Origin: Candidatus Binatus soli
GTDB lineage: Bacteria > Desulfobacterota > Binatia > Binatales > Binataceae
Direction of reading: 5' to 3'
Assembly (NCBI GenBank): GCA_002479255.1
Contig: DLMJ01000032.1
Location: 30,908-94,907 of the forward strand
Length of the DNA stretch: 64,000 nt
Below, piece by piece: positions 10,473 through 46,000 of this stretch. The number at the start of each line of letters is the position of its first letter. Within the stretch, counting starts at the first letter, position 1. Both the position numbers and the translations under genes were made by a program. The notes under the pieces were generated by a model. It made no database searches and was not told where the DNA came from. It was given only the letters and a program-made list of their open reading frames with translations.

Positions 10473-12377
10473 TCAGATCGGCCGGACCGCTCCGATCGGT
10501 ATGGCACCGGGCGCTGTGCCCACGCCGGGAGATTCACGTGGCGCGAGCTCCTGCATCTCGTTCAGCTGCATCGAGAATCTCCGCACCGGTATTCCGTGCT
10601 TCCGCCCAAAGCGGTGAAGTCTTTCGGTCTGCTCGGGAGCGAGCTCTTCGTCCGCCACGATGATCTCGGTGAACGGCACCCGCGCGTGGATGGACTCGAG
10701 GTCCTCAGGTGTGCCAAGCACTTCCTCTCCGTACAAGATTTTGCCCTGCTTGAATGCATCCCCATCGACGAATCCAACAACACGGGCCGAGCGCGTGCGC
10801 GCCTTCAAGACGAATTCCGCGGCCACGGTTCCGATTTCTCCGGCGCCCACCACTAACACCCGGTCCGTGACGGTCGCGAGGCGGCTGATCAGCTTGCGCA
10901 GCGCCTGGAACGACATCCGCGTCGCGACCAAAAGGTTGACCAGCAGGAGCGCGTACAGCAACGCAATTGATCCCGAATGCCTGATGGGCAGGAAATCGGA
11001 CCCAATCGCCACCATGATCCCCGCGATTATCGCGCCGCCGGCGAACCGGAAGCTGTCCGAGAGACCCGCGTAGCGCCAGATTCCACGATAGACGCCCGCG
11101 AGCAGAAAGGCCGGGTACGTCAGCAGGATTACCCACGGCAGCCCGCGGATCATCGATGCGAGCACCTCGGGCGTGAGCTTGAAATCAAGCCGCAACGCGC
11201 ACGCGCCGAAGTAGGCGGCGCTGATCAGCGCGGTGTCCATCGCCGCCTCTGCAATTCGGCGTTTGTAGCCGAGAGAAAGAATGTACCGTGCGACCCCCTG
11301 AAGATAGCCGTACGCTACGCTCGGGGGTCTCGCGTCGAAGGTCAAATCGATCATGAAGAGCGCGATCACCGCCGCCGCGAGCGCGATGAACGGCAACGCT
11401 GTAACGACGTCCGGATGCGGCAACAGGTTCGCCGCAATCGCGCATCCGGCGGCGACCGTCGCCACCGTCCAGATCGACGCGACGGTCCGCCACTCCGTCA
11501 CTCCGAGCGAGCGCAGCCGATCATGGACGTGCTCCAATCCATGCCTCGAAATAGCCTTCCCCATGGCCAGTCGCGCCACCGTCACGATCCCCGCGTCGAG
11601 CAATGGCACCAGCATCACCAGCACCGGAAAGACCCACAGCGTGAGCCGCGAGTTCGTCGCGAGCGCTCCTCCTTGAAGAGCCAGTACTCCCAGCATGTAT
11701 CCGAGCGGGAGCGCACCCGCATCGCCCATGATGATCGATGCGGGCGGGAGATTGAAGATAAGAAATCCCCCAAACGCTCCCGCGACGGCGAGGCTCGGCG
11801 CGGTTACCGCGGGCACTCCCCGCACGATGCCGATTGTCGCAATCGCGGCTGCGACCGTAATTCCGATCCCCGCCGCCAGGCCGTCGAGTCCGTCCACAAG
11901 GTTGAACGCGTTGGTCGTCGCGACCAGCCAGAAGATGGTGATCCCGACGTCCAGCAATTGCCAGGAGGTGAACGCGTAACGGGGCAACACGAAGATCGCC
12001 GCCCACGCGATGATCGCGAGCTGGCCTGAGAACTTCTGCCCCGGGCTCAGCGCCAGCGCATCGTCAACCAGACCGACCACCAGCATGGCGCCAGCGCCTA
12101 TCGCAATCCATCCGGCCAGGTGGCTGGTTACCACGAGGGCGACGACGATCGAGGCGATAATCGAGATGCCGCCCGTGGCAGGAACTCGCGCGTCGCTGAG
12201 CGGCGAGGCCACTTTCGCCGTAATGCCCATCCACCGGCCGAAGCGCGTCGCCACGGGCATCGTAATAATCGCCGCCAAGAACGCGATTGCAGCCGTCGTC
12301 CACTCATTTGTCAGAAGATCGAGCATTGTTAAGCTTGCCAATGTCAATTTCGCGCGGAAGCCGCCAGACTCCCCCAA
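10473..12377 (-). CDS. Fusion of a WecA/MraY-family polyprenyl-phosphate HexNAc-1-phosphate transferase (N-terminal) and a WbpM/CapD-N-terminal-like TM + Rossmann domain (C-terminal)
   Basis: NAFNLVDGLDGLAAG and multiple TM helices occupy the first ~330 aa. Four more TM helices follow, then RVLVVGAGEIGTVAA...VVGFVDGDAFKQGKILYGEEVLG. The start is uncertain (TTG 12377 or ATG 12326). Confidence 0.7.
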   Translation of the reverse strand: MGESGGFRAKLTLASLTMLDLLTNEWTTAAIAFLAAIITMPVATRFGRWMGITAKVASPLSDARVPATGGISIIASIVVALVVTSHLAGWIAIGAGAMLVVGLVDDALALSPGQKFSGQLAIIAWAAIFVLPRYAFTSWQLLDVGITIFWLVATTNAFNLVDGLDGLAAGIGITVAAAIATIGIVRGVPAVTAPSLAVAGAFGGFLIFNLPPASIIMGDAGALPLGYMLGVLALQGGALATNSRLTLWVFPVLVMLVPLLDAGIVTVARLAMGKAISRHGLEHVHDRLRSLGVTEWRTVASIWTVATVAAGCAIAANLLPHPDVVTALPFIALAAAVIALFMIDLTFDARPPSVAYGYLQGVARYILSLGYKRRIAEAAMDTALISAAYFGACALRLDFKLTPEVLASMIRGLPWVILLTYPAFLLAGVYRGIWRYAGLSDSFRFAGGAIIAGIMVAIGSDFLPIRHSGSIALLYALLLVNLLVATRMSFQALRKLISRLATVTDRVLVVGAGEIGTVAAEFVLKARTRSARVVGFVDGDAFKQGKILYGEEVLGTPEDLESIHARVPFTEIIVADEELAPEQTERLHRFGRKHGIPVRRFSMQLNEMQELAPRESPGVGTAPGAIPIGAVRPI

Positions 12378-14416: not shown

Positions 14417-15799
14417 TCAGCGGTAGGCCCGCGCATCGAATGCAACCGTTGGGTCGCCGCGGATCGTTGCAAAAGTCTCCACTCTCTCACTGGCATTTCG
14501 AAGATTGGCGGCGCGAATCAATGCTCCGAGATAAACTATGGCCGGCAGCTGCAGCATCAGGTCGACGCTGAACACTGCAGAGGTATTCTCGGGAATGGTC
14601 CGGAGCGTGAAGAAGACCATCAGACCAGCGACCTGCGCGAACATCGTCGAATCACCCGCGAACACGATATCCGGCCGCCATGCCGCGCGCGCAAGATACA
14701 CGAGGGCGATGGCAAACCCCAGCGTCCAGGCGCCGCCGCCTAGAAATCCTCCGCACAGCAACGAATAGAGGACCCCGTTCTGCGCATCCCCAAAGATGAT
14801 CCGCCGGTCCGCCCGCGGCCCGTAGCCGATGATCGGCGCGCGCAGGATGGCCTGCCAGGCATTGTAGAAAATATCGGTCCGCCCGGTCATCCGCATGATA
14901 TAATTGTCGTTGCGCGTCGCGTGGCGCCAAATGTGGTGCAGCGTTTCGTGCGACACGAAATCCAAGCCGACTGCGCCGGCGGTCAGCGCCAGCGCCAGAA
15001 TACCGATCGTGCGTGCGCGTCCTCGCAGCAGCAGCAGCACAACGCCCAGTGCCGCCACGAATGCCGCCAGCGATCCGCGCGACTGCATCACCCACACTAA
15101 CCAGGCGCATCCCGCGAACAGAGCAATCCACGCTACCCGGGTCCATCGCTCGGTCCGCCACATCGCTGCGCATGCAACGATCGCAATCGCAGCCGCGAAG
15201 CGTGAAATCCCGGTCGGACGCACCATCGCCATTCCCGCAACCATCGGCATCCTCGTATTCACCTTATAGCCGCTGAGTCCCTCCGACGTCTCCACTGTGA
15301 GATGGCCTCGGCCAAGGTAAACGATGATCGCGAGAATCACGGCGGCCGCGACCCAACTCAGGCGGTTGAGCGACGCCGCGCCGGCAATCTCGTCGCCGCA
15401 TTCCGCCAGGTACATTTCGCCCGCGCCCAGCGTTGCGATGAATGCGAGCCCCCAATAGCCCCACTCGAACCAGTTCTCCACCCCAATGCTCGCGGTGAGA
15501 CAGACGGCCGCGTAAAAAAACCACAACCACTCGGGCAGGGTCGGCTCGCGCATCCGAGTGTCGCTCCGGCCCAGCAGATGAAAAATCCAAATCGCCAGGA
15601 CCACGAGCGGGAACGCTGCGCGGATGCCATGGAACGCGGCGAACCCTCCGCTCAGGATGCCGTCGAGATCAATATTCCAAGGACCCGTGTTAATCGATCC
15701 CCAGAGCGCCAGCCAGCACAGCGTAGGAACGACCGGGAGCATGATTCCGGCGACGCTGCGAATAGGTCGATCGGTTGGTCCGCGTGCGAGCATTGTCAT
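14417..15799 (-). CDS. Polytopic membrane protein, Wzy-type polymerase / O-antigen-ligase family
   Basis: About 10-12 TM helices, with a WVMQSRGSLAAF segment typical of Wzy_C proteins. There is no canonical HNxY motif. Confidence 0.55.
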   Translation of the reverse strand: MTMLARGPTDRPIRSVAGIMLPVVPTLCWLALWGSINTGPWNIDLDGILSGGFAAFHGIRAAFPLVVLAIWIFHLLGRSDTRMREPTLPEWLWFFYAAVCLTASIGVENWFEWGYWGLAFIATLGAGEMYLAECGDEIAGAASLNRLSWVAAAVILAIIVYLGRGHLTVETSEGLSGYKVNTRMPMVAGMAMVRPTGISRFAAAIAIVACAAMWRTERWTRVAWIALFAGCAWLVWVMQSRGSLAAFVAALGVVLLLLRGRARTIGILALALTAGAVGLDFVSHETLHHIWRHATRNDNYIMRMTGRTDIFYNAWQAILRAPIIGYGPRADRRIIFGDAQNGVLYSLLCGGFLGGGAWTLGFAIALVYLARAAWRPDIVFAGDSTMFAQVAGLMVFFTLRTIPENTSAVFSVDLMLQLPAIVYLGALIRAANLRNASERVETFATIRGDPTVAFDARAYR

Positions 15800-32978: not shown

Positions 32979-34541
32979 TCAGTGCGCCTGCGCAAGGAGA
33001 AGGCGCACGCCGCGAACTACACCACGCACAGAAGCCCGCTCTCTTGGTCCGAGTACCAGCCAGCCCAGCATGGCGAATAGAAGTGGTGCTATACCGAGTA
33101 GGAGGCATTGTTCAGGCAAATCCATTGGTATCGTCCCAACAGCGAAGATCAGCAACGCCGCTGAAGTGAGCGTGGCAATCCTAGCAATCCCTGGGGCCGC
33201 CATCGGCAACAACCGCCACGCCATAAGGAATACTATAAGCGTTGTGACTACCACCCGAACTGTCCATGTTATGGCCACTCCCGCGATTCCATATCGCACC
33301 ATCATCCACCACAGCATGGCAACGTAGAATGGTGCTTCAGCGAGATGAAGCTTGGCGAGAAGATCAGGCCGGTCAGCGGCCTGGATCAGGCCGTAGGCCG
33401 GGTGTGCGGTGCTGTTGATGAACACGGCAAAAGTGAGCCATCGCAATGCGCTTGCACTGTGGTCCGCGAAGGAGGGACCGAGCCACAGGCGAAGAGCTTC
33501 GGGCGCCAGCGTGATGATAAAAAGAACCGGGGCAAACAGCGTGAGAACGATGTACTTGGTAGCGCTCTCGAGCAAGAGCGCAGCGTGGTCCGGATCGCTG
33601 CTGAAAGCGCCGGAAAAAGCGGAAAACGTCACCGCTGACACGGCATTGGGTATAATCCACAGCTTGGTCGCCACTTGGAAGGGCACTGCGTAGTAGGTAA
33701 CCGCCGCCATCGACAGCATCGCGCCGATCAGAAAGCGGTCGAAATAGGCCATGATTGGGCTAACCACCGCCGACACCGTAAGCCAGCCGCCGAAGCTCAG
33801 CATCGGGCGGATCGTGGCGCGACCCGGGTGAATTTCGCGCCCGAGCCCCGGAACGAGACGCAAGCAAAGCCAGAATGTCACGATCCACCCGGCCACCCGT
33901 CCCAGCACCACCACCGCGACCAGCCAGCCAAGGCTGTGGGAAAACGGCAACACCAGGAGCGGACCCACATAGGAGAAGATGGCGCTCGGCACGCGGATCT
34001 CATTGATGAGGTCGAAGCGCTGGAAGGCGGAGAGCGTGCCGTTCAGGCCGCCGCTGCTGATGACGAAAGGCATCGAGAAAGCGAGCAGATACAAGGCGTG
34101 CAGGCTCTCAGGCTGGAGCGCAACGGGAATTTTGAGGGCGCCGTGCACCAGCCATGGCGCAAGAACGGCAACCACGACGCCACCTGCGGTGCCGAACGCC
34201 AGCATCATGAACAGCGAGGTCCAGAACAGGCCAGGGATCTCCTGCTGGTCGCTCGACGCGGCGGCCGCGGCGATGAACTTGGTCGCGGCGCGGCCGAGCC
34301 CGAAGTCGAACAGGCCAAAGTAGCCGACCACCATAATGGACAGAGTGAGGACACCATAGCGATCCACTCCGAGCACGCGAATAACGAGCGGTATCGCCAG
34401 CAACGCAACCAAGGAAGGCGCGACCTCGCCCGCAAGGTTGATGATCGTGTTGCGAGCAAGCAGACGCCCGCTGGTGAGATTGGTCGGATTGCTCAAACAG
34501 CTATCGCGCGCGGAGTTCCATCGCGTCCTTCGGCGCTGCAT
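32979..34541 (-). CDS. wzx: Wzx-type (MOP superfamily) oligosaccharide flippase
   Basis: About 12-14 TM helices, with N-terminal LARNTIINLAGEVAPSLVALLAIPLVIRVLGVDRYGV. The start is uncertain (ATG 34541 overlaps the upstream gene; TTG 34496 is an alternative). Confidence 0.75.
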   Translation of the reverse strand: MQRRRTRWNSARDSCLSNPTNLTSGRLLARNTIINLAGEVAPSLVALLAIPLVIRVLGVDRYGVLTLSIMVVGYFGLFDFGLGRAATKFIAAAAASSDQQEIPGLFWTSLFMMLAFGTAGGVVVAVLAPWLVHGALKIPVALQPESLHALYLLAFSMPFVISSGGLNGTLSAFQRFDLINEIRVPSAIFSYVGPLLVLPFSHSLGWLVAVVVLGRVAGWIVTFWLCLRLVPGLGREIHPGRATIRPMLSFGGWLTVSAVVSPIMAYFDRFLIGAMLSMAAVTYYAVPFQVATKLWIIPNAVSAVTFSAFSGAFSSDPDHAALLLESATKYIVLTLFAPVLFIITLAPEALRLWLGPSFADHSASALRWLTFAVFINSTAHPAYGLIQAADRPDLLAKLHLAEAPFYVAMLWWMMVRYGIAGVAITWTVRVVVTTLIVFLMAWRLLPMAAPGIARIATLTSAALLIFAVGTIPMDLPEQCLLLGIAPLLFAMLGWLVLGPRERASVRGVVRGVRLLLAQAH

Positions 34542-35430
34542 CCCGCCACCATTGAATCGTCGCGGCGAGGCCGTCTTGGAGGGTTAATCGCGGCCGGAAA
34601 TCCACCTCGTCGCGCAGACGACGGACATCGGCGACGACGCGTGGCGAGTCGCCGGGCGCAGCGGCTATCGCGCCGAACTCGAGCATCGAGCGTGGAGCGC
34701 CAACCGCGTCTGCGATCATCTCGACCAGCGCGCGGACGGTGACTTCCTCACCCGACCCGATATTGACGGTCCCTTCGACTTCTCCATCGAGGATCGCCGC
34801 GAACGCAGATGCGACATCGGCGACGTGCAGGTAGTCGCGTAGCTGGCGTCCATGGGTGCATCGCGCCGGCTGGTCGCGCAGGAGAGATTCGATCACCGAC
34901 GGCACCAGGCGCGACGGATGCTCGCCCGGACCGTACAGGTAGAAGATTCTTCCCCATGCAGTGCTGAGACCGCCCGGCGGGCGCCTCACAACTTCGGACA
35001 GGGCAAGCTTGCATGCGCCGTAACGCGTGGTGGGAGCGCATCGCGTGTCTGTTTCCGAACACATGCCCGCCGAGGGATCGTATTCGAAGCAGCTGCCGGC
35101 GAAAACCGCGCGGCCGCCGCCGGCCGCGGCGAATGCGCGCAGCAGATCAATTCCCGCGCGACACCAGACATAGTTCTGCTCCGACATCTGGTACTTGCCG
35201 GGCTCCGCGTACCACGCGAGGTGAAGCAGATGCGTCGGCCTGACCCGCTCGAGCATCGGCATCACGGCCGATTCGTCCAGAAGATCCGTCCGATGCCACT
35301 CTACGCCGCGCGCGGGAGCTGACGCGCCGCGATGGGCGACGGCATGCACCTCGTAGCCGCGCTCGACAAGAAACGGGAGGGCATGGCTTCCGATCCATCC
35401 TGATGCGCCGGTTACGATCACCCGCTTCAT
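34501..35430 (-). CDS. NAD(P)-dependent SDR, likely a nucleotide-sugar 4-ketoreductase
   Basis: MKRVIVTGASGWIGSHALPFLVERGYEVHAV at ATG 35430 (ATGA overlap with the upstream stop). YGACK supplies the YxxxK motif. The 499-aa ORF extension is rejected. Confidence 0.7.
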   Translation of the reverse strand: MKRVIVTGASGWIGSHALPFLVERGYEVHAVAHRGASAPARGVEWHRTDLLDESAVMPMLERVRPTHLLHLAWYAEPGKYQMSEQNYVWCRAGIDLLRAFAAAGGGRAVFAGSCFEYDPSAGMCSETDTRCAPTTRYGACKLALSEVVRRPPGGLSTAWGRIFYLYGPGEHPSRLVPSVIESLLRDQPARCTHGRQLRDYLHVADVASAFAAILDGEVEGTVNIGSGEEVTVRALVEMIADAVGAPRSMLEFGAIAAAPGDSPRVVADVRRLRDEVDFRPRLTLQDGLAATIQWWRDAAPKDAMELRAR

Positions 35431-35957
35431 GGCACGAAATCCGGATAAGCGCGATCGCGTTCGGAGATCACCGACGGCTCGGATGGCCATCGGATGCCGA
35501 AGGCGGAATCGTTCCATCGCACGCCGCGCTCCGCCTCGGGCGCATAGTACGCGGATACCTGGTAGAAGACTTCGGTCCCGTCCGCGAGCGTGAGATAACC
35601 GTGGGCACATCCCTCCGGCACATAGAGCATCCGGCGGTTGGACGCGGTCAGCTCGACGCCGTACCAGCGGCAGTACGCCGCAGATCGGGGCCGGAGGTCG
35701 AGGATTACGTCGAAGATCGCGCCCGAAGTGCATCTGACCAGCTTCGCCTCGGCCTGCGGAGCCAGTTGGTAATGCATCCCACGCAGCGTTGCGCGAACGT
35801 GGTTGTATGAGAGGTTGCACTGCACGACCGCGGGGTTGATGCCGTGCGCCTGGAATTCGCGCGCGCAGAAGGCGCGCGCGAAGAAGCCGCGCGAGTCGGC
35901 GCGCTGCTCCAGATCGATAACCCAGGCTCCGGGAATTTCGGTTTCGTGAAAAATCAC
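35427..35957 (-). CDS. RmlC-like cupin nucleotide-sugar 3,5- (or 3-/5-) epimerase
   Basis: IPGAWVIDLEQRADSRGFFARAF, RGMHYQ, KLVRCTSGAIFDVILDLR and LYVPEGCAHGY. The GTG at 35957 overlaps the rfbG stop as GTGA. Confidence 0.8.
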   Translation of the reverse strand: MIFHETEIPGAWVIDLEQRADSRGFFARAFCAREFQAHGINPAVVQCNLSYNHVRATLRGMHYQLAPQAEAKLVRCTSGAIFDVILDLRPRSAAYCRWYGVELTASNRRMLYVPEGCAHGYLTLADGTEVFYQVSAYYAPEAERGVRWNDSAFGIRWPSEPSVISERDRAYPDFVP

Positions 35958-37063
35958 GGCGACACGTGCGTGCCGCGGCGCGGGTCGGGCGTCGCGGCAT
36001 CTCCGATTCGGGAGTAGCGCCGGATCTGCTCTACGCTGAGGTCGTAGAGGCGCGGTCCGCGAACAGACGGCGCGGCGCGGTACCACTCGACGGTAAAATC
36101 CACCGCCTCGCGCAGCGAAAGCCGGGGGCGCCAACCGAGCCGCTTGCTTGCCTTGGCGGTGTCGAGCCACAGCATCCGCGCCTCGGCAAGCCCGTCGGCG
36201 GCCGGCTGGACGCGCCATCGCGCGCCACCCCACGCATCGCTCAGAAGCTCGACGAGCTGCGCAACTGTCGCAGCGGCGGAATCTTGCGGGCCGAAATTCC
36301 ACGCGCCGGAGAATTTCCGGCCGCGTTCGATCAGTGCGCGGGCAAGCGCGAGGTACCCCGACAGCGGCTCCAGCACGTGCTGCCACGGCCGAATCGCATC
36401 GGGATTGCGGACACACAGGACTTGATCGTGGCTAAAGGCGCGGATCGCGTCGGGGACAATGCGATCCTCGGCGAAATCGCCGCCACCGATCACGTTGCCC
36501 GCGCGCGCAGTGGCAAGCGCGACTGGAGGTTCGCGGTTTTCCAGGAACGAGCGGCGCCACGCGTGCGCGACAATCTCGGCGCAGCCTTTGCTCGCGCTAT
36601 AGGGATCCGCTCCGCCAAGTCTGTCTCGTTCGCGAAACGCGTGCGCGGTCTCAGGATTCTCGTAGCACTTGTCGCTCGTCACCACGACCACCGCGCGCAC
36701 GGACGGCGCGTGCCGCACCGCTTCGAGCACGTTGGCGGTGCCAATGGCATTGGTCTCAAGGGTCGCGAGCGGCTCGCAATAGGAGCGGCGCACGAGCGAC
36801 TGCGCCGCCAGGTGAAAAACGATCTCCGGCTGAGATTGCTCGAATGCGCCACGCAGACGGTCGCGGTCGCGGATGTCGCCGATGCGTGAGTCGATCACGC
36901 CTTCAAGCTTGCACGCGGAGAAGATTCCGCCGGAAAACTCCGGCGCAAGTGCGTAGCCCGACACCTGTGCGCCGAGCTCGCGGAGCCACATCGCGAGCCA
37001 TCCTCCCTTGAAGCCGGTGTGGCCTGTCACGAGGACGCGGCGGTTCCAGAATTGATCGACCAC
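35954..37063 (-). CDS. rfbG: CDP-glucose 4,6-dehydratase
   Basis: FWNRRVLVTGHTGFKGGWLAMWLRELGAQVSGYAL and YSASKGCAE (YxxxK). It directly follows rfbF. Confidence 0.85.
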   Translation of the reverse strand: MVDQFWNRRVLVTGHTGFKGGWLAMWLRELGAQVSGYALAPEFSGGIFSACKLEGVIDSRIGDIRDRDRLRGAFEQSQPEIVFHLAAQSLVRRSYCEPLATLETNAIGTANVLEAVRHAPSVRAVVVVTSDKCYENPETAHAFRERDRLGGADPYSASKGCAEIVAHAWRRSFLENREPPVALATARAGNVIGGGDFAEDRIVPDAIRAFSHDQVLCVRNPDAIRPWQHVLEPLSGYLALARALIERGRKFSGAWNFGPQDSAAATVAQLVELLSDAWGGARWRVQPAADGLAEARMLWLDTAKASKRLGWRPRLSLREAVDFTVEWYRAAPSVRGPRLYDLSVEQIRRYSRIGDAATPDPRRGTHVSP

Positions 37064-37866: not shown

Positions 37867-40728
37867 TCACGGTAACTTGTCGGCGCTGCCCGCCCCAAGC
37901 GCCGGCGCAACACTCTGCGCGGCGTCCGAACGCCCGGCAGCGAGCTTCTTCTGGAAGGCTGCGTAGCTGTCGCGCACCTCGATGTCGTTCGGGGCAAGCG
38001 CGCGCGCGTGGAGATAGTCGTGGTCAGCGGTGACATATTGGTAGGCGCCGTTCTCCGCGCCTGCGAGCTCAACCCACGCCCGGGGATTCGTCGGATCGAT
38101 TTCCGTGGCGCGGCGGAAGGTCTGAGATGCTCTCTCATAGTCGCGCGCCCCCAAGTAGAAAGAACCCAGGCGCAGGAGGTTGTCGTAGGTCGGCTCGTAC
38201 TCGACCATCTTCGCCAAGGCCGCGCGCTCCTTATCGGGTTGTCCCGAGGCCTGCGCCATTTGCGCGAACGCTGCAAACATAGGAACCGGGTCGACGCCGG
38301 CATCCAGCCCTTCCTTCAGGACGATCTCAGCGTCAGAGGCGTCCTTCGGCGTGACAAACACCTCGGTTAAGAGCGCAGAATATGGCTCCGGGTCTTGCGG
38401 GCGCAAGGCGCGGGCCCCCTCAAAGCAGCGGCGCGCCCGGTAAAGTTGTCCCGTGCTCGCATAGGTCTGCCCCGCGGTCATCAGAAGTTGCTCACGACGA
38501 CGGGGATCCTGCTCGGAGGCCGCACCGCGCTCGTAGAGCTGCGCGGCAACCAGAGTGCGTCCGGTATCCACGTAGAATGCGCTGAGGCTGTCGATCGCTT
38601 CGGAGTATCCGCGCGCCATCGCCTCGAGCAGACCCTGTTCGATGGCTTGGCGATCGGGCCCCGACAAGTAGGGCATTATCCGAGGGGTGAGATAGAAATG
38701 GTTACTAGAGCTGGGCGCGCGCATCACTGAGATCGTAATCTGATTCAGCGCCTCGGCGGTGCGCCCATTCTCGGCCAGGCTGCGAGCATAGAAGTCGCGC
38801 GCGAACGGATTGCGCGGATCGATCCATACCGCCCGCGCAACCTCCGCGAGCCCGGCCGGCGAGCTCCCGTACCACGACGCCAGGGCGAGGTGCAGGCCGG
38901 CGTTGGCCGGGTGCAGCAACACCATCGTGCGCGCAGCGTCAAACGTCCTGGCTGGCGGATAGTAGGGATAAATCACACTTCCCTGGACGGTGGAGGCAAT
39001 CGCGAGAATCCCCGCCGCCGCGGCGGCATAGGGACCGGCACCTCGAACCAGCCCGCGGGCGCGGATCGCGAACCCAGTTTCCGGGGCGCCGGCGACCGCG
39101 ATCCTCACCATCAATGCCGCGTAGATCGTGAACAGAAATCCGATGGCTGGGGTGGTGAGGCTGAAATCAAACAACTCGTGGAATGCTTCGACCGACATTC
39201 CGGCCACTAAAGCGGCCAGCGTCAGTTGCGCGCGGGGGGACACGCGGTTCCATCGCTTCCATATGACCCGCGCGATTCGCCATCCGATCATCGCGAACGC
39301 GGCAATGCCGAGGATTCCAAGTTCCGCGGCAGTCTCGATATAGTCGTTATGGGCGTTGCGCAAAAGCATAGGAGGCCATGGACCTGTCTGATAGTGAGGG
39401 AACACCTCAGCCCACGATCCGAAGCCGACCCCCAACAACGGATAGTCCCGGAACATTCGCAGCGTGTCGCGCCAGATATGCGCGCGGAACCAAAAACCGA
39501 GCCCCCCGGCCGCGCTCTGGTCGATCCGGGTGTCGACCTGACCCCTGCCCGCGGAACCGATGAGTGCGATCGACAGCGCGGCGATCGCAAGCGCCGCGAG
39601 CCCGAGCCTGGGCACCCAGGCGCGCGCGCCATCGGCGCGCGCGCGGAACACCGTGGGTGTTCTTATTCGATTCGCCATCACCGCAAACAGTACGCAGGAC
39701 AGCACCGTCCCAGCCCAGATTGCGCGCGATTCACTCAGAAGCATCGCGCACACCACAATGACCAGCGCCGCGCTGCACAGAATCGGCACCGTCTCATCGC
39801 GTTCCCGCCCAGCGTCGGCTGCCAACGCGTCCCAGGCCCGCGAGATGAACAGCGGCACGGTCATCGCGAGATAAGCGGCAAAATGGTCGGGATCGATGAA
39901 AGGACCCATCATGCGCTGCCAGCCCAGTTTTGGCGCACGCCAATCGAGCGGGACAAAGAACCACAGCACCTTGCCGTTCCACGTGGCCTGCTGCACCAGT
40001 CCGATCGCCGCCACGGCAAGTCCGCTGATCAGGATCACCGCCACGAGCAAACGGGTAAGCGGATCCTCGTCGCGCGGGGTCGCCTCGGGCGTGACCGGGT
40101 AGAGCGCCACAATCACAAAGAGCCCGAACGCGGCAAAGAGTTGCAGCGCACTTGCAATCCCGAGCGGGGGCGCGAGCGACAACGACCGCCACGCAGTTCC
40201 ATACCAGCCCGGGTCCGCAGGAGAGCGCCCCACCACCGGCGGCGAAGCCGCTTCACCGCTCTCGCGCTGCGAGGTGAATGGAACCGGCGCGCCGCTCCTC
40301 ACCTCGCTCTCCGTCGGCATTACCACCACTCGGACCTCGGAGGTCGCAGCCTGCGCCGGTCGGGCTTTAGGCCGAGGATAATCAACCGTTTTCGGCCATC
40401 CGTCCAGCGCGTGCTGATAAAGGTCGTATGTTCGCGGCGACAGGACGTGCAAAAGCGACGGCGGCATGGGCGCCAGCTGGAAACCGATGAGCAGCGCCAG
40501 TACAGCGGTGGGCGCCGCGATGCTCAGCACCACCGCCGCACCCTTGATCGCCGGCTCGGCCGCGCGCATCCGCAAGAGCGCCGCGGCAAGCATGGCGAAG
40601 ACCACAGTCTCAGCGATGTGATACGCCCGGGGATGAACCGTCCCGAAGCACAGGGGCGTGACAAGGATAAGAAGGACCAGGCCTCCGATCACTGCACGGT
40701 CAATCAAATCAATCGACTGGGTGCGCAT
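37867..40728 (-). CDS. Wzy_C / O-antigen-ligase-family membrane protein fused to a C-terminal TPR-repeat domain
   Basis: About 12 TM helices, LLSESRAIWAG and the WaaL/PglL-type RNAHNDYIETAAELGILG motif. The C-terminal ~380 aa carry repeated TPR-like A/Y/L patterns. Confidence 0.7.
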   Translation of the reverse strand: MRTQSIDLIDRAVIGGLVLLILVTPLCFGTVHPRAYHIAETVVFAMLAAALLRMRAAEPAIKGAAVVLSIAAPTAVLALLIGFQLAPMPPSLLHVLSPRTYDLYQHALDGWPKTVDYPRPKARPAQAATSEVRVVVMPTESEVRSGAPVPFTSQRESGEAASPPVVGRSPADPGWYGTAWRSLSLAPPLGIASALQLFAAFGLFVIVALYPVTPEATPRDEDPLTRLLVAVILISGLAVAAIGLVQQATWNGKVLWFFVPLDWRAPKLGWQRMMGPFIDPDHFAAYLAMTVPLFISRAWDALAADAGRERDETVPILCSAALVIVVCAMLLSESRAIWAGTVLSCVLFAVMANRIRTPTVFRARADGARAWVPRLGLAALAIAALSIALIGSAGRGQVDTRIDQSAAGGLGFWFRAHIWRDTLRMFRDYPLLGVGFGSWAEVFPHYQTGPWPPMLLRNAHNDYIETAAELGILGIAAFAMIGWRIARVIWKRWNRVSPRAQLTLAALVAGMSVEAFHELFDFSLTTPAIGFLFTIYAALMVRIAVAGAPETGFAIRARGLVRGAGPYAAAAAGILAIASTVQGSVIYPYYPPARTFDAARTMVLLHPANAGLHLALASWYGSSPAGLAEVARAVWIDPRNPFARDFYARSLAENGRTAEALNQITISVMRAPSSSNHFYLTPRIMPYLSGPDRQAIEQGLLEAMARGYSEAIDSLSAFYVDTGRTLVAAQLYERGAASEQDPRRREQLLMTAGQTYASTGQLYRARRCFEGARALRPQDPEPYSALLTEVFVTPKDASDAEIVLKEGLDAGVDPVPMFAAFAQMAQASGQPDKERAALAKMVEYEPTYDNLLRLGSFYLGARDYERASQTFRRATEIDPTNPRAWVELAGAENGAYQYVTADHDYLHARALAPNDIEVRDSYAAFQKKLAAGRSDAAQSVAPALGAGSADKLP

Positions 40729-40798: not shown

Positions 40799-43195
40799 CT
40801 AGTTGCCGTCGCTCGCGCGCTTGGGGCTGTCGGCCATTGGAGAAGCGTCCTCGAACGGTGGTTCATCGGCGTCTACGTTATCGAAACCCTGGTAATATCC
40901 TTGGTAGGCCTTCGAGTAATAGTGCGGGAAATCCGCCTTGTACAACCGCACCTTGTTGAGTACGACGCCCAGGACCTTCGCGTTCGTGTACTCGAGACGG
41001 CCCAGCGCCGCGGCCACCTGATGGCGGGGTGTGTGTCCCCCCGCCGTAACCAGCACCACCCCGTCAACAACCTGAGCAAGATCCAGCGGGTCGCTCACCA
41101 ACATCACCGGCGACGAATCGATGATGATATAATTGTACGCTTCAGAAAGTTCCCCCAGAAATTCCTTCATCCGCGGTGAACCGAGCAGCTCACTGGGGTT
41201 CGGCGGAATTCTCCCGCAACTCAGAAAAAAGAGATTTTCAACCGAGGTCGGCTGCACCAGCTCTGTTCCGCCCGTCCCGGTGAGCGCCTCGGTCAGACCC
41301 GGGCGGTTCTGCAAACCAAGTAAACGATGGCATCTCGGGCGCCGCATGTCCGCGTCGATTATCAGCACTTTCGAGCCAGTGTGCGCAAACACTGAGGCGG
41401 TGTTGACGGCAACCGTGGTCTTTCCTTCGCCGGGAACGGCACTGGTGAACATGGTCGCCTTGGGTGGCGCCCCCGCCCGCGACAGCCGCAGCGCGGTGCG
41501 AAGCTGGCGAAAGGACTCGCCCAGTACGGAGTATTTGCCGTAGGTTGCGACCAGGTTTCGTCCGTGCGCGCCGTCGGCGGGCAGGTCGGCTACCGCGGGC
41601 TTTGGCAGATATCCCGCGTGGTAGCGCGAGCCGATGGAGATGGCGCTGTTGAAGTCAGGTATCGTCGCCAGACCCGGAAGCTTCAGATAGCGTTCCAGCT
41701 CCTCGGGGGTCTTAAGCGTGTTGTCGAGCCGCTCGATGAATAGCGCGCCGCAAATCCCCAGCAGCAATCCCAGCGCGGCCGCGGCTACCAGGTCGCGCTG
41801 GGTACGTGGGCTCGACGGGCCAAGCGGCGGTTGCGCCAGGTCTACGACCGAAACGTTGGACGCATGTGCGTCCCCGACGACGGTCAGGTTCTTCATCCGC
41901 TTGAGCACGGCGTTGTAAAGCTCGCGGTTGGTGTCGGCCTCGCGCTCAAGCATGACGTATTTGATGGCGGCGTCGTTGAGCCCCAGCGCAAAGCCCTTCT
42001 CGTTGTCGAGCTCGGTGGCGATCGCTGCTTCGCTCTTGAGCGCGGCCTGATATTGCTCGTTTACGCTTGCGACCGCGGTCTTGAGCTCGCGATCCAGAAC
42101 CGCACGCGTCCCGCCGATCTTCTCGCGGAGCTCTCGCATTTCCCGATATTCATCGGTGTACTCGCCGCGCATACTGGCATAGCGCGATTCGAGCTGGTCA
42201 AGGTCGCCTTTCAAGCCCTGGATCACCTTATTGTCCATCACTTGGGGCAGGGCGTCAGTGTGGCCGGCCTTCACGAGCTCGAGCTGGGTGCCCAAGGTGA
42301 TGGTCTTGAGGTGCGCGTCCTGAAGGTCATGGTTGAGTTTGTTGAGCTGCTCGACCACCACATCCTGGCTGCCGTTGAGCGAGATCAGTCCTGGGACGAT
42401 ATCCTTGTCACGCCGGTAGTTGTTGAGCGCCAGCTCCGATTGCTCGACGCGCTGCTTGAGTTCGTCGAGCTTACCGGCCAAGAATCGCTGAGCCTCGTCG
42501 CTCGCCTGGGCGCTGAGCTCGATCCCCTGCCGAATAAATGCGCGCGCGTGAGCATTGGCCATTCGCGCCGACAACTTGGGATCCGAGGTCGTGAACCCGA
42601 TCTGTACCAATTGTGTGTTTTCGATGGGCTTGACCTGCAGCGCGCCCAAATACCATTGGACCACGGAACGGGGAACGCTGTCCGCCAGTGGATCGTCCAA
42701 CGTCGGAGCAGCCTGCTTCGCCGCAAGGCTGGGAAACCAACCCGCAAGCGCGGACCGCAAGACGCCCCACCCAGGCAACCACGACCCGGAGGCGTGCGAA
42801 GGCCGAGCCTCCAGCTTCATTAGTCCTTGGTCGAGAATCACCCGGGTTGCGAGGCTGCTTGACTTGAGCAGCTCGGACTGCGTGTCATCATACGGTTCCT
42901 GAGAAGAGTCCTGCGGCGCGGAAATGCTTTCGTCCTCGAAGACCCGTGATGGGGCGAATCGTATGAGCAGCGTGGTGCTGGCCGTGTAGGTCGGCTCCGC
43001 CATCAAATCACGCACCAGCGTGAAACCCACACATGCCACCGCGATCACAAGCACCAGGCGCAGGTGCTTTTGCACGATGCGACGGTATTCGTGAAACTCA
43101 ATCCATGGCTCGTGACCCGCACTGCGCGGCGGCCGGCGCACGAGATGCGCTTCCACGTACTGCGGAGGTTCTTTACGCGGTTCGATTTGTGTCAT
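40799..43195 (-). CDS. wzc: Polysaccharide co-polymerase / BY-kinase (Wzc/GumC/EpsB-like tyrosine autokinase)
   Basis: Wzz-type N-terminus with two TM helices flanking a long coiled-coil. Walker A is SAVPGEGKTTVAVNTA, Walker A' is VLIIDADMRRP, Walker B is IIIDSSPV, and the C-terminal tail is Tyr-rich (YYSKAYQGYYQGF). Confidence 0.85.
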   Translation of the reverse strand: MTQIEPRKEPPQYVEAHLVRRPPRSAGHEPWIEFHEYRRIVQKHLRLVLVIAVACVGFTLVRDLMAEPTYTASTTLLIRFAPSRVFEDESISAPQDSSQEPYDDTQSELLKSSSLATRVILDQGLMKLEARPSHASGSWLPGWGVLRSALAGWFPSLAAKQAAPTLDDPLADSVPRSVVQWYLGALQVKPIENTQLVQIGFTTSDPKLSARMANAHARAFIRQGIELSAQASDEAQRFLAGKLDELKQRVEQSELALNNYRRDKDIVPGLISLNGSQDVVVEQLNKLNHDLQDAHLKTITLGTQLELVKAGHTDALPQVMDNKVIQGLKGDLDQLESRYASMRGEYTDEYREMRELREKIGGTRAVLDRELKTAVASVNEQYQAALKSEAAIATELDNEKGFALGLNDAAIKYVMLEREADTNRELYNAVLKRMKNLTVVGDAHASNVSVVDLAQPPLGPSSPRTQRDLVAAAALGLLLGICGALFIERLDNTLKTPEELERYLKLPGLATIPDFNSAISIGSRYHAGYLPKPAVADLPADGAHGRNLVATYGKYSVLGESFRQLRTALRLSRAGAPPKATMFTSAVPGEGKTTVAVNTASVFAHTGSKVLIIDADMRRPRCHRLLGLQNRPGLTEALTGTGGTELVQPTSVENLFFLSCGRIPPNPSELLGSPRMKEFLGELSEAYNYIIIDSSPVMLVSDPLDLAQVVDGVVLVTAGGHTPRHQVAAALGRLEYTNAKVLGVVLNKVRLYKADFPHYYSKAYQGYYQGFDNVDADEPPFEDASPMADSPKRASDGN

Positions 43196-44469
43196 CAGAA
43201 TGCCCCCATGAGCGCGGCGGCCGGGGCCATCGAAGCTATCCCCTGCGCCGCGAGGTAGACAGCGTATCCGGGAATTTTCACCGCCGAATATCCAACGTCC
43301 ACAACGTCGTTCGCCTGCAGGGCGACGTCCGGCGCCTGGCCCCGCTGAACCTCCGCCAGATTTACGTGGATTACTTGGGTTTGGTCACCGGCTTCGCGTC
43401 GCATGATCTTTACGGTGGCCGGATCCGCCGCGTACATCATGCCTCCCGCCGCGGAAACAGCGTTCAGTGTTGTCAGACCGTGAGTCACTGGAAGCACGGT
43501 GGGGTGATAGACCCAGCCGATCACCGAAATCTGGCCTGCGAGGGGCACGAAAAGAGTATCGCCAGGCCTTACCGGGAAATCGACATATTTCCGATAGGGC
43601 GAGTCACCATCCAAGGCGATAACGTACCCCGAGCTGCCATCGAATTCGCTCTCGGAGGGTGGCCGAACCCACGGGGTGTAGTCGTTTTTCAGTGCGGTGT
43701 TGGTGACGACGCCCGAAGGTTGTGCGTTGGAATTGTCGACAGCACCGAGCGCAGCGGTCGGGACCTCAGGCGGCTTGGGCATCGCTGCGTCGTTTGCGCC
43801 CTGCTGCGCAAGCATCGAGTCACCGTTCGAGCCTGGCCGCGCGGGGCTGAGCAGCACCTTGTGCGCGCCGTTATCGTTGAGCCCTCCAGCGCGTTCGATC
43901 AGATCACGAACGGTGTCACTGGGCCCGTTGAGTACGTAAAGCCCGGGGGCGCGTACTGCTCCCATCACCCCCACCGCCCTGCTGGAATAGGTCTTCACTA
44001 GCAGATTGATTTCCGGATGGTACGCATACTTGTGGAGCGCGTTGGCCAGGTGGTCGATGATCTCCGGTTCCGCAAGTCCCGCAACGTGGAGCGATCCCAC
44101 CAGCGGAAGCATGATGTCGCCCTTTCCGTCGACGCGCACGGTACGGTCTTCAAGGTCCTTTACGTTCGGCACCGAAATTTCCAGCACGTCGCCTGGTCCG
44201 ATCGTTAAATCCTTCTGTTCCGTCGCGCGTTGCTGCCAGAGCTTGTCAAGCGCTGTATCCGATTGTGCGGCGGGAAGCTTAGCTGCTGAAGGTGAGCCCT
44301 CGCTGCCTGGCGCCGGTGGCGCCTGCGATGCGCACCCGGCGAGCGCCGCGGCAAGCGCGGCAAGGAGCGCCACCTGGAACCTGGGGACGCCGCCGCGGCG
44401 AGGTGCTCTTGCACTCCGAGTCAAACTGAGCGGACCCGTTGTTGATAGTGTTTTCTCAGCGCTGCGCAT
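43195..44469 (-). CDS. wza: Wza-like outer-membrane polysaccharide export protein (Poly_export + SLBB domains)
   Basis: TIGPGDVLEISV and VRVDGKGDIMLPLVGSLHVAGL (Poly_export), then repeated SLBB-like segments. A signal/lipobox-like LAGCAS is present. The ATG at 44469 has AAGAGG upstream. Confidence 0.8.
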   Translation of the reverse strand: MRSAEKTLSTTGPLSLTRSARAPRRGGVPRFQVALLAALAAALAGCASQAPPAPGSEGSPSAAKLPAAQSDTALDKLWQQRATEQKDLTIGPGDVLEISVPNVKDLEDRTVRVDGKGDIMLPLVGSLHVAGLAEPEIIDHLANALHKYAYHPEINLLVKTYSSRAVGVMGAVRAPGLYVLNGPSDTVRDLIERAGGLNDNGAHKVLLSPARPGSNGDSMLAQQGANDAAMPKPPEVPTAALGAVDNSNAQPSGVVTNTALKNDYTPWVRPPSESEFDGSSGYVIALDGDSPYRKYVDFPVRPGDTLFVPLAGQISVIGWVYHPTVLPVTHGLTTLNAVSAAGGMMYAADPATVKIMRREAGDQTQVIHVNLAEVQRGQAPDVALQANDVVDVGYSAVKIPGYAVYLAAQGIASMAPAAALMGAF

Positions 44470-44574
44470 GGGTCGAACCTCTTTGTAAAACCACACTGAT
44501 CCCCCCGCACTCAAGCAAGTCGCCTGAGGCCCTTTTGCAAATGGGTTACGATATTAACTCAACCAAAGAAGTTG

Positions 44575-45015
44575 TTAGGGTGACGGTGCTGGAACCGATC
44601 CCCCTGTGGCGCCGCCGGCCGCCGCGCTCACCGGCGTACAGGTTCCGGCTCTCGCGCCTGGACGACCGGTCGCGAGAGCGCTGGCGCTTTGCGAGACCAT
44701 CCAGTAAAGGCAAAGCCCTTCCGGCGGCACGCCGGTCTCGATCGTCTGGCCCTGGTACTTGGTCCCGGGCAAGGTCAGGGAGATGCTGTATTCGCCGGTC
44801 GCAATCCCTCCGATCGAGTAGTGCCCGTTAGTGTCGGCATCCGCCTTGCCAACAACGTTGCCCGCCTGGTCCTTGACGCTGACATCCGCCGAGGTTACTG
44901 GGTGATTCTGAATGTCGGTGACTAACCCGGCGATTTCGGCCGATCGGGCCTGCACCGCGAACATAAGCAACCCCAGCGCAACAAGGCCCGTCGTCAAAAG
45001 ACGTCTCTTTCTCAT
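44575..45015 (-). CDS. Small secreted carboxypeptidase-regulatory-like (CarboxypepD_reg) domain protein with an Ala/Ser/Gly/Pro tail (paralog 1)
   Basis: Signal peptide, IAGLVTDIQNHPVTSADVSVKDQAGNVVGKADADTNGHYSIGGIATGEYSISL, then a low-complexity tail ending SVPAPSP. Confidence 0.65.
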   Translation of the reverse strand: MRKRRLLTTGLVALGLLMFAVQARSAEIAGLVTDIQNHPVTSADVSVKDQAGNVVGKADADTNGHYSIGGIATGEYSISLTLPGTKYQGQTIETGVPPEGLCLYWMVSQSASALATGRPGARAGTCTPVSAAAGGATGGSVPAPSP

Positions 45016-45171: not shown

Positions 45172-45714
45172 CTATCTGGACGAACTGACCACCGGGGAGG
45201 GGCCGCCGCCGCCGCCTCCGCCAAAACAGCCCAAAGCGACACACACACCGAATCCGCCACCCGTAGCGGCCCCCAGCGCGCCTCCCGCAATATAAAGGTC
45301 GGGAATACCTCCAAAATACGCCCCGCCGCATGCGCCCGGCGGATTTGCCGATACCATCCAGAGAGGATTCGAAGCAGCTGCGACCTGAGTGTATGATAAT
45401 GACCAGTCTTCCGTCTCACCTTCCGCAGGTACCTTGTCGTTGACCGTTCCTGGTTTGAACGATGTGCCTGCCGGAGGATTCACCGAGGTCTTGTAATTGC
45501 CCGGCCGGAGTCCGGTAATGCAGTACCGGCCCAACGCGTTGGTCGTCCCTTGGCCAACAACATTTCCGTTCGAGTTCGTGACTGTAATTTGAGCTCCAGT
45601 CATTGGACCTTGGGGCCCGAGCACTTTGCCTGTGATGTCGGAACAGAAAGCGGCCGGCGTAAGAGCAAGGCAAAGAAAAGTTAGCAAAGAAGGTCCAATA
45701 TATGATTTATTCAT
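45172..45714 (-). CDS. Small secreted CarboxypepD_reg-like domain protein with a Gly-rich hydrophobic tail (paralog 2)
   Basis: ATG at 45714 with AAGGAG upstream. Signal peptide, ITGKVLGPQGPMTGAQITVTNSNGNVVGQGTTNALGRYCITGLRPGNYKTSV, and a tail GGALGAATGGGFGVCVALGCFGGGGGGGPSP. Confidence 0.65.
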   Translation of the reverse strand: MNKSYIGPSLLTFLCLALTPAAFCSDITGKVLGPQGPMTGAQITVTNSNGNVVGQGTTNALGRYCITGLRPGNYKTSVNPPAGTSFKPGTVNDKVPAEGETEDWSLSYTQVAAASNPLWMVSANPPGACGGAYFGGIPDLYIAGGALGAATGGGFGVCVALGCFGGGGGGGPSPVVSSSR

Positions 45715-46000
45715 CAGTGCGCTCCTTAAGCGGTCTGGCGCCACGCGAGCATCGTCGATCATTTTTCCAAATGTCGCCCGCCCGGTGATTCAGAACACGC
45801 GTCCGCCATCCCTTTCCGTCTCGAAAACGGTGGGCTGTTCTTTGATCTCCTCTGACACCCCAACCTGAATAGCTAAAGCGAGCTAAATTGCGCTTCAACC
45901 AACCTCACCGCTTCCATTTCGGTTTACCGACCTAAAAAAGTTACCCTAGAGCAAATTCAGTGTCAATGGCACTCTTTTGATGGTCTGTAGCTCATTTTCG

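Follow-up and report, generated by a model that had tools for sequence, protein, structure and literature searches.

The stretch of Candidatus Binatus soli DNA analysed here, 64,000 nt of contig DLMJ01000032.1 (assembly GCA_002479255.1, positions 30,908 to 94,907; hereafter the window), has a G+C content of 60% and comes from a genome that is 98% complete (3.67 Mb in 50 contigs). From ~45.8 kb down to 10.5 kb all its genes lie closely spaced on the minus strand and, judging from the protein families encoded, make up a Wzx/Wzy-dependent polysaccharide locus with an export pair formed by an outer-membrane polysaccharide export (OPX) protein and a type 2a polysaccharide co-polymerase (PCP-2a). 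Reading along that strand, two genes for small CarboxypepD_reg proteins (45172..45762 and 44575..45015) are followed by wza (OPX; Poly_export and SLBB domains; 43195..44514), by wzc (PCP-2a; Wzz, GNVR and tyrosine autokinase domains; 40799..43195), the start of which overlaps wza by 1 nt, and, 70 nt further on, by the gene that is the subject of this work (P0001; 37867..40728). The latter is a single open reading frame (ORF) for a protein of 953 residues in which a Wzy_C domain is joined to tetratricopeptide repeats (TPR). Nucleotide-sugar genes begin 29 nt beyond it. Further downstream lie the only Wzx-type flippase gene found in the locus (Polysacc_synt; 32979..34541), methyltransferases, about ten glycosyltransferases and two polytopic proteins, and the locus ends with a second, 460-residue Wzy_C-like protein of ~8 predicted transmembrane (TM) helices (14417..15799), an epimerase, and a WecA-like initiating polyprenyl-phosphate sugar-1-phosphate transferase (Glycos_transf_4 and CoA_binding_3; 10473..12377).

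The P0001 protein matches Pfam Wzy_C (PF04932) over the whole length of the model (77.9 bits, E = 9e-22, model positions 1-149 of 149; cut-off 31.7) at residues 320-479 (39292..39771), while TPR models score above their cut-offs at residues 825-891 (TPR_14, 43.3 bits). At E ≤ 10, residues 1-592 match only Wzy_C and residues 593-953 only TPR models. The family comprises 253 clusters (50% identity) at E ≤ 1e-30; its close members come from metagenome-assembled genomes (MAGs) of Candidatus Binatus, Binataceae and Binatia, and are labelled 'O-antigen ligase/tetratricopeptide (TPR) repeat protein' by JGI. The combination of Wzy_C with TPR is already annotated in databases, and has precedents in WsfB and PglL.

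The motif of WaaL ligases has been given as H[NSQ]X9GXX[GTY], starting at H338, together with D389 (A. actinomycetemcomitans WaaL preprint, bioRxiv 10.1101/2022.10.31.514599), and the residues common to ligases and O-oligosaccharyltransferases are R215, R288 and H338 of E. coli WaaL, corresponding to R224, R298 and H349 of PglL (Schulz et al., PMC3643930). The P0001 protein carries RNAHNDYIETAAELGILG at residues 457-474 (39307..39360), the histidine being H460; the portion from this histidine onwards, HNDYIETAAELGILG (residues 460-474), fits the WaaL motif exactly as H460-N-X9-G471-X-X-G474. The original prediction for this DNA, made from its letters alone, had described a 953-residue protein with Wzy_C, an HNDY-type motif and TPR, a description borne out by Pfam, by the motif itself and by an AlphaFold2 (AF2) model. 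In an alignment of 21 full-length homologs, 33-92% identical to the P0001 protein, the motif was found in 18, and the three exceptions retain the histidine. Invariant positions comprise R335 (in an SxSR sequence), R395, R401, R415, H460, Y463, E469, E518 and D521, and HELFDF (residues 517-522) is invariant at the predicted periplasmic end of the eleventh TM helix. R335 lies within the Wzy_C match, as does the predicted periplasmic catalytic loop (residues 391-461). R335 and one of R395, R401 and R415 would be the counterparts of WaaL R215 and R288, a pairing made by position only. With H460, R335, R395, R401, R415, E518 and D521 invariant across homologs down to 33% identical, these features are not a product of chance. 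Further afield, AHNDY...AE.G was present in nine of ten remote long homologs from the same class and phylum, and in four of nine still more distant ones, namely all three Nitrospirota genes and one from Acidobacteria. A phmmer search of the PDB with the whole protein returned TPR proteins only, and an hmmsearch with a profile of the TM domain returned nothing at E ≤ 10.

The membrane domain (residues 1-592; 38953..40728) was predicted to contain 13 TM helices. In the full-length AF2 model (pLDDT 75, pTM 0.63) 13 long hydrophobic helices occupy residues 2-29, 34-57, 64-85, 188-209, 223-250, 280-303, 313-332, 335-354, 365-~390, 462-495, 498-520, 527-545 and 552-581, and hydropathy averaged over the 21 homologs gave 13 peaks at positions that agree with them. 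The short loops predicted to be cytoplasmic hold 15 Lys/Arg per 99 residues, versus 6 per 73 in the short periplasmic ones. In the Wzy_C ligase class the catalytic loop works at the periplasmic face, on glycans linked to undecaprenyl diphosphate (Und-PP). Since an even number of TM helices, four, lies between this loop and the TPR domain (hydropathy peaks at 470-483, 506-513, 526-542 and 567-581), these predictions place the TPR domain in the periplasm with high probability. WaaL has 12 TM helices and a cytoplasmic C-terminus; the 13th helix of the P0001 protein (residues 552-581; 38986..39075) is what, according to both AF2 and hydropathy, brings the chain back to the periplasmic side. There, helical repeats modelled with pLDDT mostly >90 form a TPR superhelix at residues 596-939 (37912..38943). 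The original prediction of a periplasm-facing TPR region was thus supported as to side, AF2 and family hydropathy alike speaking against a cytoplasmic placement, and was somewhat too generous as to length (~380 residues; ~345 in the model). A Foldseek search of the PDB with the full-length model retrieved, among the top 50 matches listed, only TPR or similar helical repeats, such as the TPR domain of OGT, and so gave no information on the membrane domain. A second AF2 model, of residues 1-592 from a seven-sequence alignment, reached a pLDDT of just 42, and its Foldseek matches (E > 0.5; ABC transporters, GPCRs) were meaningless.

The surroundings of the gene were compared in 49 Binatia species-representative loci having enough upstream DNA. 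Immediately upstream of the ortholog, wzc was found in 46 of them; wza was present upstream in 43 and a small CarboxypepD_reg homolog in at least 34, with all three together in 30. The constancy of the neighbours is therefore Wzc > Wza > small protein. A further set of loci, drawn from metagenome contigs and from 20 genomes of the family, repeats the arrangement [small CarboxypepD_reg]-wza-wzc-[Wzy_C-TPR] with the proteins just 30-40% identical and the sugar genes downstream varying. Initiating-transferase homologs occur in four of the fetched loci that bear a Wzy_C-TPR gene (L004, L005, L049 and L051). The linkage extends to long homologs that are remote (23-28% identity) but still within the class and phylum, eight of the ten sampled having TPR Pfam matches: five of the ten lie directly after wza-wzc, some with overlapping ORFs, and two more within ~3 kb of the pair. 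Nitrospirota loci read wza-wzc-long gene, and Pirellulaceae loci long gene-wzc. The small protein was not detected beside these remote wza-wzc-Wzy_C-TPR operons; one homolog was found at L045, a locus from a different family within the class. At six loci (L029, L033, L087, L094, L100 and L103) wzc, the Wzy_C-TPR gene or both are broken into two or three overlapping ORFs, the cause being frameshifts in MAGs assembled from long reads or else decay of the genes.

The window's own genome (G000) contains three Wzy_C genes: P0001, that of the 460-residue protein, and one for a 423-residue protein on another contig. The 460-residue protein matches Wzy_C weakly (34.6 bits, model positions 3-131 only) and at the place of the ligase motif reads GDAQNGVLYSLL (...DAQNGVLYSLL...), with Q where the ligases have H; short paralogs of other loci read ...LENEYARI... 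at that place. The ligase motif was missing from all eight second Wzy-like genes checked, and the six of these with a Wzy_C match carry E or Q at the histidine position. The claim that the histidine motif belongs to the long protein and not to its 460-residue paralog is accordingly correct, and holds across the family. Neither BLASTP nor hhalign found similarity between the 460-residue protein and the P0001 family, the Pfam model alone connecting them; hhalign of the P0001 protein against the third Wzy_C protein gave 98% probability.

A second polytopic protein of 444-479 residues also occurs in the variable region of related loci. It matches Wzy_C weakly (25-35 bits) in L023, L024, L036, L038 and L039, and the polymerase family PF14296 in L041 (49.7 bits, above the cut-off) and, weakly, in L040. 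A long and a short Wzy_C gene were found within ~25 kb on one contig in 15 of 41 family genomes. Between clades the short genes have no BLAST similarity, while the long proteins are 29-36% and the Wzc proteins 35-42% identical; the short genes of L040 and L041 are 24% identical, their long proteins 53% and their Wzc proteins 73%. Comparison of the window genome with that of a congener (G217) gave 45% for Wzx, against 83% for the long protein, 85% for Wzc and 82% for Wza. The short Wzy (14417..15799 in the window), being exchanged from clade to clade and carrying E or Q in place of the histidine, is on these comparisons the likelier polymerase of the two. The long protein does not vary as a polymerase would be expected to: it tracks Wzc and Wza between clades and keeps a fixed place after wzc, and in Pfam/NCBIfam scans it matched neither of the polymerase models PF14296 and TIGR04370. 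This pattern of conserved machinery beside a polymer-specific polymerase speaks for the long protein as a ligase-type enzyme that tolerates different polymers, and the polymerase-like character attributed to the 460-residue protein in the original prediction fits a 'ligase plus polymerase' arrangement. Two further lines of argument were dropped. Conservation within the genus has no discriminating power, since between the window genome and G217 the 460-residue protein is 81% and the long protein 83% identical; and the Wzy_C bit score cannot separate ligases from polymerases, some second paralogs in family genomes reaching 60-72 bits.

The third Wzy_C gene (G000 contig C24, 18884-20155) lies inside a separate exopolysaccharide (EPS) locus (~6.9-21.4 kb). 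Its product has TIGR03097, 'putative O-glycosylation ligase', as best match (106.8 bits, below the cut-off). The C24 locus, which resembles the PEP-CTERM-associated type, has a short Wza-like gene and an outer-membrane protein with a weak match to TIGR03016 (PEP-CTERM-associated), and its Wzc-like tyrosine kinase ends in (RYG)n/(KYS)n repeats.

The small CarboxypepD_reg proteins at the head of the operon matched their Pfam family with E = 4e-11 (45172..45762) and E = 2e-10 (44575..45015). The first is 196 residues long as listed, with a probable start at M17 (45714); the second has 146 residues. Together with the proteins of L007, L023, L028, L029, L031, L041 and L045 they form a family with a common layout: behind a hydrophobic N-terminus that reads as a signal peptide come a beta-sandwich, the conserved sequence G-L-x-[LI]-x-W-x-[VL]-S (GLCLYWMVS in the 146-residue protein) and an Ala/Ser/Thr/Pro linker. 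In most of them a hydrophobic C-terminal segment rich in Gly and Ala follows, and then a short polar tail. Low-complexity tails had been assigned to both proteins of the window; this stands for the 146-residue copy, which ends in an Ala/Ser/Thr/Pro/Gly tail with no TM anchor, but in the 196-residue protein and most orthologs the tail contains the Gly/Ala-rich hydrophobic segment, resembling a C-terminal membrane anchor. The segment missing from the 146-residue copy is present in its 66%-identical L007 ortholog. Such a layout would hold the small proteins at the inner membrane, beside the Wzy_C-TPR protein. No known sorting signal, PEP-CTERM included, was matched when the small proteins were scanned with NCBIfam models. 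The L045 protein has an additional 90-residue Thr/Pro-rich tail beyond its hydrophobic segment. In L036, L038 and L039 the slot upstream of wza is filled by a 253-residue ORF, by its sequence a candidate GT2-like glycosyltransferase, and wza-wzc-Wzy_C-TPR is retained. In a divergent clade (L004:9740-9967 and L005:7231-7467) a Pro/Thr/Ala-rich protein of 75-78 residues (MKKWLIG...PTPTPRPISP) is encoded directly upstream of the Wzy_C-TPR gene, and the gene order is enzyme-(initiating transferase)-wza-wzc. This protein has a hydrophobic N-terminus and no family match, and is unrelated to the CarboxypepD_reg protein, which that clade lacks.

Several known systems share part of this arrangement. 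The P0001 protein resembles WaaL (E. coli, V. cholerae, P. aeruginosa) in belonging to the Wzy_C family, by position in its SxSR and loop arginines, candidate counterparts of R215 and R288, and in an acidic residue ~55-60 positions past the histidine, comparable to D389. It differs in having 13 rather than 12 TM helices, a periplasmic TPR region and a 100-residue periplasmic loop after the third TM helix, and in being encoded in a wza-wzc operon instead of a core cluster. C-terminal TPR motifs have been reported for PglL and for WsfB, the predicted S-layer O-oligosaccharyltransferase of Paenibacillus alvei (PMC2943079), and the order of a Wzy_C core followed by a C-terminal TPR-type region, with small exported Ala/Ser/Pro-rich proteins encoded nearby, is shared with them; in the P0001 protein, however, the TPR region is far larger, the PglL_A (PF15864) and Wzy_C_2 (PF11846) domains are missing, and the genes kept beside it code for OPX and PCP proteins instead of pilins or S-layer proteins. 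Proteins of the exosortase A system-associated family TIGR03097 are likewise ligase-like Wzy_C proteins fixed in EPS export loci with Wza-like and Wzc-like genes, but have ~400 residues and no TPR fusion, belong to PEP-CTERM/exosortase systems, and are themselves only putative ligases. Pairs of a Wzy and a PCP, such as WzyE-WzzE, offer a polytopic inner-membrane enzyme of the same superfamily that acts on Und-PP-linked glycans and adjoins a PCP gene; Wzy genes are, though, usually polymer-specific and highly variable, unlike P0001, which is conserved with the export genes and accompanied by a separate Wzy candidate. A periplasmic TPR superhelix attached to export machinery is also found in the synthase-dependent systems (BcsC, PgaA, AlgK, PelB), and among NCBIfam models the P0001 protein matches BcsC weakly and PrsT more strongly. 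In those systems, however, the TPRs are fused to, or work with, outer-membrane beta-barrels, whereas here they sit on an inner-membrane Wzy_C enzyme of a Wzx/Wzy pathway. Three traits appear undescribed in the literature searched: the constant position behind the wza-wzc pair in different lineages, the combination of a 13th TM helix and a ~345-residue TPR superhelix, and the regular pairing with a short Wzy lacking the histidine.

The interpretation we prefer, with confidence that is about even, is that the P0001 protein is a ligase-class Und-PP-glycan transferase (WaaL/PglL class) forming a conserved subunit of the Wza-Wzc module in Binatia. Since the locus encodes a WecA-like initiating transferase and many glycosyltransferases, we infer that repeat units would be assembled on Und-PP. 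The single Wzx would flip them and the separate, clade-variable short Wzy would polymerise them. At the periplasmic face, the long protein would then bind the Und-PP-linked glycan through R335, H460, one of R395/R401/R415 and the two acidic residues E518/D521, and with these would transfer it en bloc to an acceptor, with release of Und-PP. The 13th TM helix would set the TPR superhelix in the periplasm, where it could dock onto another protein, be it Wzc/Wza through their periplasmic part or an acceptor protein. Candidate acceptors are lipid A-core and the anchored small CarboxypepD_reg protein encoded first in the operon; simple release of the polymer and its hand-over to Wza is a further candidate outcome. 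Given that Wzc is the most constant neighbour, and that remote homologs lie beside wza-wzc with no small protein detected, it may be for binding to the export machinery, and not for recruiting acceptors, that the TPR domain has been conserved. Domain make-up, motif, conservation, predicted topology, operon linkage and the presence of a separate polymerase candidate are what the analysis shows directly; the transfer chemistry, the acceptor and the part played by the TPR domain are inferred.

A number of observations weigh against this interpretation. The RfaL model NF012031 matched neither the TM domain (E ≤ 1) nor the whole protein (E ≤ 0.01), PglL_A gave no match even at E ≤ 10 (nor did Wzy_C_2), and the TfpM model NF058641 scored 15.9 bits against a cut-off of 600. 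The TM-only model, with its pLDDT of 42, is too poor for a comparison of folds with WaaL. The tight and often overlapping linkage to wzc is equally to be expected of a co-polymerase/polymerase pair. Within one subclade the short Wzy (48-72% identity) is as conserved as the long protein (40-71%) or more so, and the near-equal identities of the two proteins between the window genome and G217 point the same way. The histidine contrast also presumes that true Wzy polymerases lack this residue. Finally, all relatives are MAGs of uncultured organisms.

A serious rival, although we consider it the less likely reading, is that the P0001 protein acts as the pathway's Wzy polymerase, alone or as one of a pair, and is coupled to the co-polymerase Wzc; the TPR domain would hold it to the Wzc/Wza assembly, and the short Wzy would be a second polymerase or have some other role. 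The place of wzc immediately upstream in 46 of the 49 loci, with ORFs often overlapping or nearly abutting, is what such a pair would produce, and the pairing with wzc recurs in Nitrospirota, Pirellulaceae and other lineages. PCP proteins are known partners of Wzy enzymes, and a WzzE-WzyE complex has been reported (PMC10030265). Against a polymerase stands the conservation of the long protein across loci that differ in glycosyltransferase and Wzx content, as seen in the congener comparison (Wzx 45%, long protein 83%). A separate Wzy candidate, in some cases with a PF14296 match, lies in the variable region of most of the 20-kb loci inspected, and the long protein itself lacks PF14296 and TIGR04370 matches and carries the exact ligase motif that its short paralogs are missing. 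In favour of the polymerase reading there is also a parallel in the Caulobacter holdfast operon hfsDABC, where a Wzy_C-type polymerase gene adjoins OPX and PCP genes. A TPR-tethered polymerase, if that is what the P0001 protein is, would reveal the way in which Wzy is kept in contact with the Wzc/Wza machinery.

The remaining two explanations are special cases of a ligase-class transferase, and each is rather improbable. According to the first, which was the proposal of the original prediction, the protein is a PglL-like O-oligosaccharyltransferase whose TPR domain recruits the small CarboxypepD_reg proteins, Ser/Thr residues of their Ala/Ser/Thr/Pro linker being glycosylated. The P0001 gene does lie near a candidate acceptor gene: a small-protein gene stands first in the operon at no fewer than 34 of the 49 species loci, a positive outcome for the proposed check on co-occurrence of Wzy_C-TPR and CarboxypepD_reg, and also in L045 of another family, while in L004/L005 the unrelated 75-78-residue Pro/Thr/Ala-rich protein takes the place directly upstream. 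All the small proteins carry W-x-[VL]-S followed by the Ala/Ser/Thr/Pro-rich linker, and most would be anchored by their C-terminus near the enzyme. It is consistent with this that pglL genes frequently adjoin the genes of their targets (PMC3643930) and that WsfB and PglL are reported to carry C-terminal TPR motifs (PMC2943079). The co-occurrence on which the proposal drew is thus upheld, but the mechanism fares less well: the PglL-type models (PF15864, PF11846, TfpM) failed as described above, and Wzc (46/49) and Wza (43/49) are more constant neighbours than the small protein, which was not detected at 15 of the 49 loci, including the L036/L038/L039 lineage with its GT2 gene, nor seen beside the remote wza-wzc-Wzy_C-TPR operons. 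Nor is there a clear reason to weld a glycoprotein system to an OPX/PCP export pair. If protein glycosylation did prove true, the enzyme would represent a new O-oligosaccharyltransferase class that has its recruitment domain built in and might serve glycoengineering.

The second special case, equally doubtful, is that the P0001 protein is the organism's WaaL, joining the polymer to lipid A-core (as O-antigen or K-type lipopolysaccharide) while Wza-Wzc exports the unlinked fraction: the motif and residue set match exactly (the arginines by position), LpxC and a Kdo transferase in the genome imply that lipid A-Kdo is made, and the remaining two Wzy_C genes, the short one without the histidine and the TIGR03097-like one, leave no other convincing candidate, but the RfaL model does not match, a 13th TM helix and a 345-residue TPR domain have no obvious use for a lipid acceptor, the linkage is to wza-wzc and not to core genes, and an ortholog was not found in 8 of 26 sampled family genomes, O-antigen being in any case not obligatory.

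To our knowledge, how the polymer leaves Und-PP in Gram-negative Wzx/Wzy capsule and EPS pathways, and to what if anything it is finally attached, is not known, and we know of no enzyme identified for this release step in model Gram-negatives. A candidate for it is the ligase-type enzyme that keeps its place beside wzc/wza in some 50 Binatia species, and in similar form in further lineages, Nitrospirota among them. One may speculate that Wzy_C-TPR proteins carry out an unrecognised last step of Wzx/Wzy-dependent capsule/EPS assembly in a number of non-model phyla. Acting against the Wzc cage, they would remove the finished polymer from Und-PP and either hand it over to Wza or attach it to the small beta-sandwich protein anchored in the inner membrane, giving a protein-anchored or protein-primed capsule. 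This broader idea is a long shot.

Elsewhere in the locus, the 499-residue 'epimerase' ORF at 34501-36000 has an Epimerase domain only at residues 194-415. At the same place L007 has a 176-residue dTDP_sugar_isom gene followed by a 304-residue epimerase gene, and L022 has two ORFs, so the window's ORF is either a fusion of two genes or an over-extended call spanning two. The 484-residue polytopic protein at 21378-22832 has no Pfam match; a 33%-identical homolog is encoded directly after wzc in the distant L005 (14532-15962), and this protein may be another semi-conserved member of the module. Other genomes of the Binatia class contain open frames of 1,600-2,100 residues in which a core resembling Wzy_C can be aligned with residues ~170-490 of the P0001 protein (for example at G250:C3:379057-380337, G221:C30:16693-17658 and G204:C70:13280-14233), which suggests that still larger Wzy_C fusion proteins occur in other families of the class.

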